NCBI GenBank assembly: GCA_963752985.1 | Contig: CAVWAN010000012.1 | Span: 98,933 to 162,932 of the forward strand | Direction: 5' to 3' | Length of the DNA: 64,000 nucleotides | Source of the DNA: an uncultured Acidobacteriaceae bacterium | Lineage (GTDB): Bacteria > Acidobacteriota > Terriglobia > Terriglobales > Acidobacteriaceae | Shown: positions 52,289 to 53,976 of the stretch, piece after piece | How the letters are laid out: each line of letters starts with the position of its first letter | How positions within the stretch are numbered: the first letter of the stretch is position 1 | The notes under the pieces: model-generated | The model's database searches: none | What the model saw: only the letters and a program-made list of their open reading frames with translations | Told to the model about the DNA's origin: nothing | Translations under genes and position numbers: made by a program

Positions 52289-53119
52289 CTATGCGGTGAG
52301 TTGCACCAAGGGCCCCGGGGACGCGATTCCGAACGACTCGAGGAAATCCGCGGCAAATTTCATGCAGTTGGCCCGATCGGGGACCTCGCTAACGATGCGG
52401 CGCGGATACTCGTCGTAAGTGCGGCCATCGAGCAATCTTCCGTTTTTCGCCTTTCTCACGCCGCCCCATTGCTTGAAGAAAAAAGGCACGCGTTGTGCCC
52501 GGCACTGCTTCCGAATGGAGAGGACCCACTCCCGTTTCATCGGACGCGCGCCCGGCCCGCTCTCGCCGCCGACAATCACCCAGGTGATGCCTGACAGGTC
52601 GATTTCGCCGAGGTCTTCCAGCAGCGGCTCAATCGACAGGAAGCGGACTTTCGCAGGAGCCCGCCGTAGATGGTCCACTCGGGGCAAACCATGTTTCCGG
52701 TCTTCAACACTGACGCCCCACCAGATGTTTTCCCGCTCTGCCGCATAACGTAGCTTGCCGCTGAGCAATTGCAGCAATCTCTCCGACCTCTTCGTCAGAA
52801 CCTGATAGGTGTGCCAATCCGCCGTCGCCATCACGCGCGAGACAGCCTCCGCGTAGTCGTCCGGCACTCCCGCTTGGAAGAGGTCGCTCATCGAGTTCAC
52901 GAACACCAGTTTGGGCGAGCGCCAGGCAAATGGCTCTGTCAGCTTCTCCGGTACCAGACGCAGATCAAACCCCTGTTCGTAAGGATGTCCCTTGACCCCG
53001 CGAAAGCGTTCGGCAAACGTTTCGGCATAGCAATGCTTGCAGCCGGGGCTGATCTTGACGCAGCCGCGGACGGGGTTCCACGTCGCGTCGGTCCATTCGA
53101 TGTGAGAATTCAATGACAT
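52289..53119 (-). CDS. three-Cys-motif protein, phage Gp37/Gp68 (DUF5131) family
   Basis: [27 protein letters not shown] opening. The later blocks [37 protein letters not shown] and FFFKQWGG match the family as remembered. Confidence 0.8.
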   Translation of the reverse strand: [276 protein letters not shown]

Positions 53120-53124
53120 AGTCT

Positions 53125-53976
53125 TTAGAATAATCCGAGTTGATCGTCGCTGCCTTTGAGCGCCTTATCCCAAAGCTGGTAGGCGAGCGGGTGACGTGAA
53201 AACAATCCGACCGCATAGAGAGGAAAGTTCTTTTCATAAAAAAAGATTTTACGCATTGAATAAAATGGTGGAGGAATATATTTCATCGTCGCCATGCTGG
53301 CGGCGAACTCCTCGGCTAGGAAGCGCGGGAATTCTGCGCCTTTCTGTTTCGCGGCCATCCACCGATCGTGCCAAGACGTCGTTCCTAGCAACTCATCGAT
53401 CTTTGAAGGGTTCTTGATGTAGTGCTGCTCGGCGCGGAGTGCGTCCATGTACAACGCTAGCAACACAATAAAATCGACATATTTCAGCGCGAGGGTCTGG
53501 AGCGTGGAGAACCTGATGCCGATATCATTGGGATCGACGAAGCAGAGACTAAGGACTTTGTGGTTTTTGGAATACTGGGGAATAGCGGCGGAGATCTTAT
53601 CTACATTAGCGTCGCAATCTTCTGGAATGAAAGCGACGTCCGCGGAAGGAGCGTGACGCCTAACCCGAACTCGCAGGGCCTCCAATTTTTCGGGATCCTG
53701 TTCGCAAAATATGTACTTGTCAAAGGGAACCTTAAGCGTAAGAGCCTGAATAGGGGACCCGGCGATAACTCTCTCCGTATCGCGAATGCGGCTGTAGCCA
53801 GCCCCGGCGTACAACTCGATATAAATTCGTTTCTCCCATTTGTCCTTCATTCCAGCCGAAAAGAGAGCTGCATAATATGCGACCAACCTGTGCTTCTCTT
53901 CAGTCCACAGCCCTACGTCGTTGCAACTTAAGCCGTCGGCTTCGACATTGACCGTTTTGTCGGCTGGCACGTTCAC
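53125..53976 (-). CDS. tcmP: three-Cys-motif partner protein (TcmP-like), Rossmann/methyltransferase-like fold
   Basis: Its stop lies 5 nt upstream of the DUF5131 start. WTEEKHRLVAYY, IELYAGAGY, FCEQD and CFVDPND. The start is GTG 53976, or the better-spaced GTG at 53970. Confidence 0.7.
   Translation of the reverse strand: MNVPADKTVNVEADGLSCNDVGLWTEEKHRLVAYYAALFSAGMKDKWEKRIYIELYAGAGYSRIRDTERVIAGSPIQALTLKVPFDKYIFCEQDPEKLEALRVRVRRHAPSADVAFIPEDCDANVDKISAAIPQYSKNHKVLSLCFVDPNDIGIRFSTLQTLALKYVDFIVLLALYMDALRAEQHYIKNPSKIDELLGTTSWHDRWMAAKQKGAEFPRFLAEEFAASMATMKYIPPPFYSMRKIFFYEKNFPLYAVGLFSRHPLAYQLWDKALKGSDDQLGLF

Follow-up and report, generated by a model that had tools for sequence, protein, structure and literature searches.

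We analyzed a pair of adjacent genes in a 64-kb stretch of contig CAVWAN010000012.1 from an uncultured Acidobacteriaceae bacterium; this whole stretch is referred to here as the window. The pair consists of tcmP, which encodes a three-Cys-motif partner protein, and a downstream gene encoding a DUF5131 protein of the phage Gp37/Gp68 family. A preliminary description made from the sequence alone had placed two coding sequences on the minus strand, 5 nt apart, and had pointed out short peptide blocks in both. We recovered the two open reading frames (ORFs; 283 and 276 amino acids [aa], respectively) at the same coordinates, with all of the blocks present: IELYAGAGY, FCEQD, and CFVDPND in TcmP and a C20-x6-C27-x2-C30 cluster in DUF5131. 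The gap between the tcmP stop codon and the DUF5131 ATG spans positions 53120-53124. The features of the locus are as follows, where SAM stands for S-adenosylmethionine and AF2 for AlphaFold2.

53125-53976, minus strand: tcmP, predicted class-I SAM-methyltransferase fold, exchangeable cassette (TIGR04474, 116.9 bits; PDC-M41A; AF2 model)
53797-53823, minus strand: TcmP motif I, Y52-I-E-L-Y-A-G-A-G60, putative SAM-binding glycine loop (family conservation; RlmJ alignment)
53530-53535, minus strand: TcmP motif IV core, D148-P149 within CFVDPND (family conservation; aligns with DPPY of RlmJ)
52289-53119, minus strand: DUF5131 gene, putative radical-SAM-type catalytic partner (PF07505, E = 1.4e-98; PDC-M41B)
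53030-53062, minus strand: DUF5131 Cys triad C20-x6-C27-x2-C30, putative [4Fe-4S] ligands (invariant in alignments)
52157-52209, minus strand: long hairpin with 23-nt arms and a 7-nt loop (inverted-repeat search, 91% complementary)

A GGAG sequence lies 5 nt 5′ of the GTG at 53970, the second GTG of the tcmP ORF, and the N termini of homologs agree with this position, so translation of tcmP probably starts there and gives a protein of 281 aa. The hairpin, located 80 nt 3′ of the DUF5131 stop codon and followed on the minus strand by a short T-run, is a probable terminator of the operon. No further copy of tcmP or of the DUF5131 gene was found within the window. The locus is a real two-gene operon whose family pair is known but functionally unstudied.

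The family assignments proposed in the preliminary description held in a hidden Markov model search. TcmP matched TIGR04474 with an E value of 1.4e-33 and 116.9 bits (cutoff, 53), its residues 24-274 covering profile positions 2-260 of 263, and DUF5131 matched PF07505 with 329.7 bits (cutoff, 28.9), its residues 4-239 covering the entire profile (1-243 of 243), as well as phrog_2045 (E = 1.3e-93). In PADLOC, the two adjacent genes matched the PDC-M41 entry (M41B for DUF5131, E = 6.8e-104; M41A for TcmP, E = 1.1e-20). DUF5131 also matched PDC-M30B at about E = 1e-104, PDC-M30 being a DUF5131 gene with a longer TcmP paralog, as seen in gp43 of Gordonia phage Fairfaxidum and at 7903-9150c of plasmid pSymA. 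The gene content of the window pair is the same as that of plasmid and phage examples of PDC-M41/PDC-M30 and of the TIGR04474/PF07505 pair, but its TcmP, which scored only 72.6 bits against M41A (residues 22-174), belongs to a divergent subfamily. This subfamily was confined to Acidobacteriota, with no relatives in IMG/VR; no Pfam family matched the window TcmP, and a look-up of its exact sequence returned no record. The PDC-x systems have been described as unpublished, computationally predicted candidates (PMC11811056; PMC12881386). We found no reported phenotype for PDC-M41 or PDC-M30 in the literature, nor any functional study of DUF5131, TcmP, PF07505, TIGR04474, PDC-M41/M30, or Gp37/Gp68, in agreement with the earlier statement that the pair has no assigned biochemical function.

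Scanning one genome per GTDB species identified 256 relatives of the window TcmP subfamily, and the best 80 loci were analyzed (L numbers below designate individual loci, those on phages and plasmids included). Nearly all of the 80 came from metagenome-assembled genomes (MAGs) of Terriglobia/Acidobacteriota, and the names of homologs were in keeping with such a host. The DUF5131 gene was immediately 3′ of tcmP in 80/80 loci. The earlier view that this is a recognized conserved pair was borne out.

The adjacency extended to viruses and plasmids, in several gene orders. DUF5131 occurred in at least 587 stretches of IMG/VR, and among the 80 best IMG/VR DUF5131 loci, 28 had a TcmP-like ORF, which was immediately adjacent in 28/28. 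The order was TcmP then DUF5131 in 8 of these, DUF5131 then TcmP in 4, and convergent with overlapping 3′ ends in 16. The pairs of Synechococcus phage Ssp-JY39 and Gordonia phage Fairfaxidum were likewise convergent and overlapping, and the Fairfaxidum pair had the integrase gene on one side and the immunity repressor gene on the other. Genes in the convergent arrangement cannot form an operon, and tcmP and DUF5131 may here affect each other by antisense or transcriptional interference. Leisingera and Acetobacter plasmids had the order DUF5131 then TcmP. On pSymA of S. meliloti (L088, 4343-10004), hna is followed by TcmP (6959-7885), which converges with DUF5131 (9186-10004, minus strand) and a long TcmP paralog of 415 aa (7903-9150, minus strand; PDC-M30A), giving two TcmP paralogs per one DUF5131. 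The known defence gene beside them, hna (PDC-S28), encodes the validated Hna defence helicase. The tcmP and hna genes of pSymA have been listed as a putative transcription unit upregulated by NolR (PMC12445080). On a plasmid of Nostoc sp. C052 (L091, 5838-7900), TcmP is encoded divergently beside a canonical CX3CX2C Radical_SAM protein (PF04055) in place of DUF5131, suggesting that TcmP partners with radical-SAM-type enzymes generally. The survival of the adjacency through all these rearrangements argues for a functional partnership between TcmP and radical-SAM-type enzymes, which is probably physical.

DUF5131 was also found by itself. A phage database contained 181 DUF5131 records, chiefly from Mycobacterium and Gordonia phages, in which the gene was usually solo and located among DNA-replication/recombination genes. 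These solo genes were often directly preceded by an AAA-ATPase gene, with genes for DNA methyltransferases, HNH proteins, and helicases around them. The AAA-ATPase gene was directly 5′ of the solo DUF5131 gene in Mycobacterium phage Estave1 (L006, 2123-3861; 4-nt overlap), Karhdo, and SimranZ1. It matched no PADLOC model, and it may be an alternative partner of DUF5131 in phages.

The two genes of the pair showed very different patterns of diversity across the 72 loci used for the divergence analysis, in which TcmP was grouped at 65% identity. TcmP formed at least 13 allele groups, and 70/72 DUF5131 proteins fell into a single group. TcmP was <65% identical in 21 of the 36 locus pairs having DUF5131 proteins ≥88% identical. 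At the site next to pccB (n = 33), the median identities were 0.89 for PccB, 0.77 for DUF5131, and 0.55 for TcmP, with six TcmP allele groups found directly 3′ of pccB, and divergence correlated with that of the flanking PccB at a rho of 0.45 for DUF5131 and 0.05 for TcmP. The site occupied in the window, between lon and engB, carried TcmP groups 1 (window), 3 (L027), and 6 (L040), each beside a DUF5131 gene whose product was ≥92% identical to the others. One MAG (CAWKDJ01) had two pairs with different TcmP groups on separate contigs (L028 and L068), the identity between the two pairs being 58% for TcmP and 67% for DUF5131. The ratio of nonsynonymous to synonymous substitution rates (dN/dS) within allele groups was 0.084 for TcmP and 0.066 for DUF5131; both proteins are therefore under purifying selection, and the diversity of TcmP is not a result of decay.

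The histories of the two genes are discordant. Between the window and L008, the synonymous divergence (dS) was 0.50 for tcmP and 1.78 for DUF5131, and between the window and L040 it was 0.30 for DUF5131 and saturated for tcmP. Sliding-window comparisons showed that the window tcmP and the first ~100-200 nt of DUF5131 had 90-100% nucleotide identity to L011, which is at a different chromosomal site; to L040/L027 at the same site, tcmP had only 47-67%. The remainder of the DUF5131 gene was 65-80% identical to L011 and 88-97% identical to L040/L027. This switch places a crossover in the conserved 5′ part of the DUF5131 gene, where the Cys motif is encoded, and the window operon is a recombinant chimera. 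Only chance-level short repeats were found when terminal direct or inverted repeats that might explain the mobility of the two-gene unit were sought. Taken as a whole, DUF5131 is a conserved enzyme and TcmP is exchanged as a cassette between lineages. In its behavior, and not by homology, the pair might be likened to the hsdS gene of type I restriction-modification (R-M) systems and to other exchanges of specificity cassettes in R-M systems, where one component with discrete alleles is shuffled beside conserved catalytic genes, with purifying selection on each allele; however, TcmP/DUF5131 has no restriction subunit or conserved nuclease, and the variability of TcmP is not in recognizable target-recognition domains.

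The preliminary description had called the upstream protein methyltransferase-like, and structure prediction agreed. The AF2 model of TcmP (predicted local distance difference test [pLDDT], 80.9; predicted template modeling score, 0.83) had 28 Foldseek matches in the PDB at E ≤ 1e-3, those listed all being methyltransferases, and the viral structure library also returned solely methyltransferases. The best PDB matches were DUF519 (2oo3) and E. coli RlmJ (6qdx and 7p9i), with E values of 5e-5 to 2e-4. RlmJ is the base-flipping adenine-N6 methyltransferase that makes m6A2030 in 23S rRNA. In hhalign, a 110-sequence TcmP profile aligned with E. coli RlmJ at 80.5% probability, pairing motif I (YIELYAGAGY with YLDTHAGAGRY), GSP with GSP, and motif IV (VDP-ND with IDPPYE). 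Searching the TcmP sequence and profile against PDB sequences at the HMMER level gave no useful match. Scored on 110 representatives of this family, which comprises 3832 clusters at 50% identity (E ≤ 1e-3), K28, Y52, D/E54, G58, G60, D148, P149, D168, R181, W202, and Y254 were 90-100% conserved. Within motif I (Y52, D/E54, G58, and G60), conservation was 0.90-0.99, with 0.90 for G58 and 0.99 for G60, and in motif IV, it reached 1.00 for D148 and 0.97 for P149, as would be expected if a SAM or active-site pocket has been kept. The predicted model and these comparisons support a class-I methyltransferase fold. The likeness to RlmJ suggests a remote resemblance or homology and not membership in that family; TcmP further differs from RlmJ in its own C-terminal helical region, its radical-SAM-type partner gene, and its allelic hypervariability.

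For DUF5131, the comparison of its three-Cys cluster with radical-SAM-type sites made in the preliminary description gained support. All three Cys residues were invariant in two alignments, with members ranging from Acidobacteriota and actinophages to a haloarchaeal virus. The CX6CX2C spacing was found in 139/153 collected bacterial and viral members, and most of the remaining members were ORFs with miscalled or truncated N termini. A few members, from an Enterocloster phage and one IMG/VR contig, had the canonical CX3CX2C, supporting the equivalence of the triad to the radical-SAM cluster site. Nearly all members also shared the blocks S(M/L)(S/A)D, GGE(S/T)G, and E(P/A)L. The AF2 model had a confident core at residues 55-265 with six beta-alpha units (71-215), so that an N-terminal Cys triad is predicted to precede a six-unit beta-alpha core, an order that may correspond to that of spore photoproduct lyase (SPL) and RlmN/Cfr, and the SAM-dependent partner of DUF5131 suggests that its substrate, too, is a base in a polynucleotide. 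One difference is that neither SPL nor RlmN has a methyltransferase-fold partner, each acting by itself. Searches of the DUF5131 sequence and profile against PDB sequences gave nothing useful. With an E value of 1.4e-23, well under the equivalog cutoff, DUF5131 is homologous to "radical SAM mobile pair protein A" (TIGR04471), and RadicalSAM.org puts it in the radical-SAM superfamily as Megacluster-5-2, adjoining SPL (5-3) and MJ0683-like proteins (5-1) (PMC9477430). This external classification, the homology to TIGR04471, the Cys motif, and the partial barrel of the model make DUF5131 a putative radical-SAM-type protein.

The position of DUF5131 near SPL and the MJ0683-like "DNA repair photolyase" cluster (PMC9477430) raises the possibility that it is an SPL-like radical-SAM lyase reversing a base lesion or crosslink, with TcmP as a lesion-flipping accessory, and that both are kept like housekeeping genes in soil Acidobacteriota and are useful to phages. 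The high conservation of DUF5131 under strong purifying selection, the core-genome locations of the pair, and the solo phage genes among replication and recombination genes are in line with this. However, a universal lesion substrate leaves the ≥13 TcmP groups, the cassette exchange, and the multicopy genomes unexplained, as well as the plasmid and prophage-immunity-region contexts, and no LexA/SOS or other repair genes recurred nearby, so we regard a repair function as improbable.

We give similarly little weight to modification of a conserved rRNA or tRNA nucleotide by an RlmJ-like methyltransferase acting with an RlmN/Cfr-like radical-SAM methylase. It is true that structural comparison puts RlmJ and other RNA methyltransferases closest to TcmP, that some prophage annotations label DUF5131 an "RNA methyltransferase," and that the neighborhoods resemble those of housekeeping genes. 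A conserved target, however, predicts a recognition subunit that tracks the host phylogeny, and TcmP does the opposite, as seen from its correlation with PccB; the pair is also patchy, mobile between sites, and carried by phages and plasmids, and no sequence similarity of DUF5131 to RlmN/Cfr was detectable.

Our preferred reading, which we hold tentatively, is that the pair encodes a two-subunit enzyme that modifies nucleic acid, probably DNA, and is made of an exchangeable targeting TcmP and a conserved radical-SAM-type DUF5131. TcmP would bind SAM, supply target recognition, and present the base, and it may methylate as well. DUF5131, as a noncanonical [4Fe-4S]/radical-SAM-type protein, would perform radical chemistry on the base presented by TcmP. 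Specificity would reside in TcmP, and DUF5131 would work with any TcmP allele and without a cognate nuclease. Because the methyltransferase relatives of TcmP flip bases out of polynucleotides and DNA is the substrate of the superfamily neighbors of DUF5131, the pair probably targets a nucleic acid, and most likely DNA. The trading of TcmP alleles suggests that specificity matters in conflict, be it for self-marking, protection, or immunity, and since the pair is found on chromosomes, plasmids, and (pro)phages, its role would probably be a self-marking or protective modification in genetic conflict. Complex formation, DNA as the target, and the pair's type of chemistry and biological role are what we infer from the data as a whole. 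A bolder possibility, which we consider unlikely though worth stating, is a programmable DNA-modifying or DNA-damaging machine, in which TcmP steers DUF5131 to sequence-defined sites to make an undescribed radical-derived base modification or lesion. If so, TcmP alleles would be traded specificities, and epigenetic or immune identity would be set by radical chemistry rather than by SN2 methyl transfer plus a nuclease.

A number of observations weigh against the preferred reading of a two-subunit nucleic-acid-modifying enzyme. First, the evidence does not tell DNA apart from RNA, a nucleotide, or a protein as the substrate. Second, the majority of phage DUF5131 genes are without TcmP, so the enzyme can do without this partner. 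On the side of TcmP, the TM-scores of the model against RlmJ were just ~0.4, and in place of the catalytic (D/N)PP(Y/F/W) motif IV (DPPY in RlmJ), TcmP has D148-P149-N-D, lacking the second Pro and the aromatic residue. A permissive Pfam scan of 27 diverse TcmP proteins returned no RlmJ family, and its methyltransferase matches were scattered and at noise level. The variability of TcmP is distributed along the protein and not focused in a recognizable target-recognition domain. The variable C-terminal tail of DUF5131 did not track the TcmP allele significantly (partial r = 0.07, reached by 47/500 permutations), giving no co-evolution signal for an interface; any interface must therefore use conserved TcmP surfaces. 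As for DUF5131, its Cys-rich N terminus was modeled at a pLDDT of <50, and Foldseek matched its model to generic TIM barrels alone (best E = 0.014), with no radical-SAM structure among them. Its predominant CX6CX2C spacing departs from the CX3CX2C of canonical radical-SAM proteins, including SPL and RlmN/Cfr; it had no PF04055 match at E ≤ 0.01, and hhalign aligned it with the canonical radical-SAM partner of the Nostoc plasmid at only 29% probability.

The pair is located in an islet between engB and the conserved tig-clpP-clpX-lon cluster, and the islet also contains a Phd/ParE pair, a DUF6602 gene, an HD-GYP gene, and a small membrane ORF. The preliminary description had noted an AT-richer islet with a nuclease-fold neighbor and a toxin-antitoxin pair, and all three are present: the G+C content (GC) is 0.51-0.53 across 53000-55000 compared with ~0.58-0.60 in the surroundings, the DUF6602/NucC-like PD-(D/E)xK protein is encoded at 54171-55073 on the plus strand (PF20247, E = 1.8e-26; PADLOC PD_DExK, E = 1.8e-32), and Phd/ParE are encoded at 55410-56027 on the plus strand. 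The AT richness is real as context, but it is partly a systematic property of tcmP, whose GC was below that of DUF5131 in 72/72 loci (0.516 versus 0.570).

The preliminary description had further suggested that the pair could be one half, the modification half, of an unconventional R-M-like system; in the specific form of this proposal considered here, DUF6602 would be the restriction half. DUF6602 is indeed adjacent to the pair and divergent from it in the window, and it has a PD-(D/E)xK/NucC-type PADLOC match. However, it was found in 0/80 related loci, including L027 and L040 at the same lon-engB site. This absence, together with its low GC (0.507) and atypical codon usage, points to an independent insertion, consistent with a separate and recent one, and not to a partner. 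The comparative genomics largely refutes DUF6602 as a restriction partner, leaving the R-M proposal very improbable indeed.

More generally, clustering of ~1400 called neighbor genes from the 80 Terriglobia loci showed that the recurrent neighbors were mostly housekeeping genes, such as those for PccB, ThiL, GlmM, CdaA, RNase R, XseA, RelA, and CysK. The commonest was a PccB-like acyl-CoA carboxyltransferase gene, found 5′ on the same strand in 35 loci and directly adjacent in 23. No conserved third gene or nuclease family was among the recurrent neighbors, and the ~540-aa genes 5′ of the pair on two alphaproteobacterial plasmids were unrelated to each other. In a rough comparison limited to Terriglobia, 137 immediate neighbors showed no PADLOC enrichment over 150 control genes 8-9 positions away (96 families near the pair versus 132 in the control). 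Matches in the near set were to a single pAgo, a single SNF2/DruE-like helicase, and a small number of PDC models, and the control set had generic UvrD helicase and kinase matches. The toxin-antitoxin neighbors did recur: 13/80 loci had Phd, 7/80 had ParE, and several had HTH_17/PIN_3, and a tightly linked small-gene pair flanked the operon in 13 loci. Phd/ParE were seen on either side of the operon, e.g., in L009, L013, L016, L027, L048, L052, and L068, and were sometimes ~90% identical to the window copy where TcmP was just ~55% identical. HTH_17 and PIN_3 took the Phd/ParE position in L009, L010, L056, L092, and L093. At the lon-engB site, L040 lacked the toxin-antitoxin pair in addition to DUF6602 and HD-GYP. 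On the Leisingera plasmid, the context included two Abi genes, and on the Nostoc plasmid, the flanks held BREX-1 genes (pglZ, brxL, and brxA), a CHAT-TPR protein gene, and IS elements.

These contexts bear on the possibility that the pair is an anti-phage or anti-plasmid defence system (PDC-M41), in which TcmP is a diversifying sensor or specificity factor and DUF5131, on infection, damages or modifies the nucleic acid of the invader or makes a viperin-like antiviral nucleotide. This possibility overlaps with our preferred reading, differing in that the selected function would be immunity and not self-modification. The matches to PDC-M41A/B, with PDC-M30 as a sister candidate, speak for it, as do the allelic diversification and cassette exchange of TcmP, which are typical of conflict systems, the two divergent copies in one MAG, and the recurrent toxin-antitoxin genes. 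The same is true of the Abi and BREX-1 plus CHAT genes on plasmids, the co-regulated hna directly 5′ on pSymA, and the Fairfaxidum pair between integrase and immunity repressor, the usual place of prophage defence genes. Radical-SAM-type enzymes also have a place in phage-host conflict, as Ophion (rSAM + PHP + PRTase) and the prokaryotic viperins are validated radical-SAM defence systems, although these belong to other radical-SAM families with other partner genes and have neither a sequence relationship nor a common architecture with the pair. On the other hand, the PDC-x systems are unpublished candidates (PMC11811056; PMC12881386), the recurrent neighbors in Terriglobia are housekeeping genes, the immediate neighbors show no PADLOC excess, the pair occupies fixed core-genome sites in many species (e.g., the 35 loci downstream of pccB), and no nuclease, transmembrane protein, NADase, or other obvious effector is present. 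Within the evidence gathered, just the toxin-antitoxin neighbors and a few plasmid and phage contexts point towards genetic conflict, and the latter (Abi, BREX-1 plus CHAT, Hna, and the prophage immunity region) are suggestive but anecdotal. We thus see a primary defence function as possible but rather doubtful. The general proposal of the preliminary description, an uncharacterized candidate for nucleic-acid modification or defence, remains reasonable, whereas its appeal to the genomic context is not supported by the neighbors found here, nor is its R-M model.

TcmP and DUF5131 are large, widespread families without a known function. The family pair itself was already known (TIGR04474/PF07505; PADLOC PDC-M41), the window pair being a divergent member; what is new is the predicted methyltransferase fold, the obligate linkage, and the cassette-exchange pattern, which lead to a testable hypothesis on specificity. 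If DUF5131 is a nucleic-acid radical-SAM enzyme with a swappable partner, it would bring new chemistry to DNA/RNA modification and phage-host conflict and would explain a gene left hypothetical in thousands of actinophage annotations. The natural allele swaps at one orthologous site (the window, L027, and L040) and the minimal two-gene unit, from which the neighboring nuclease DUF6602 can be omitted, offer experimental handles.

Several other features of the window deserve mention. The HD-GYP-type (HD_5) gene, with a membrane N terminus, is located at 50838-51875 on the minus strand, and a 413-nt spacer separates it from DUF5131. L027 and L040 have neither the gene nor the spacer, and in them the small ORF and engB come directly after DUF5131; the HD-GYP gene is a second insertion in the lon-engB islet. 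An Acido-Lenti-1 RNA motif (RF01687) was found at 50460-50505 on the minus strand (E = 1.1e-8; 48.1 bits, gathering score 37). It is flanked by engB and the small membrane ORF and falls within the overextended N terminus of the called engB ORF (49786-50547), and the true start of engB is probably 3′ of the motif. Finally, the first ~40 kb of the window contains a long, mainly one-strand gene array (336-38823, plus strand) that, judged from its ORF layout and N termini alone, looks like a polysaccharide/glycan biosynthesis cluster.

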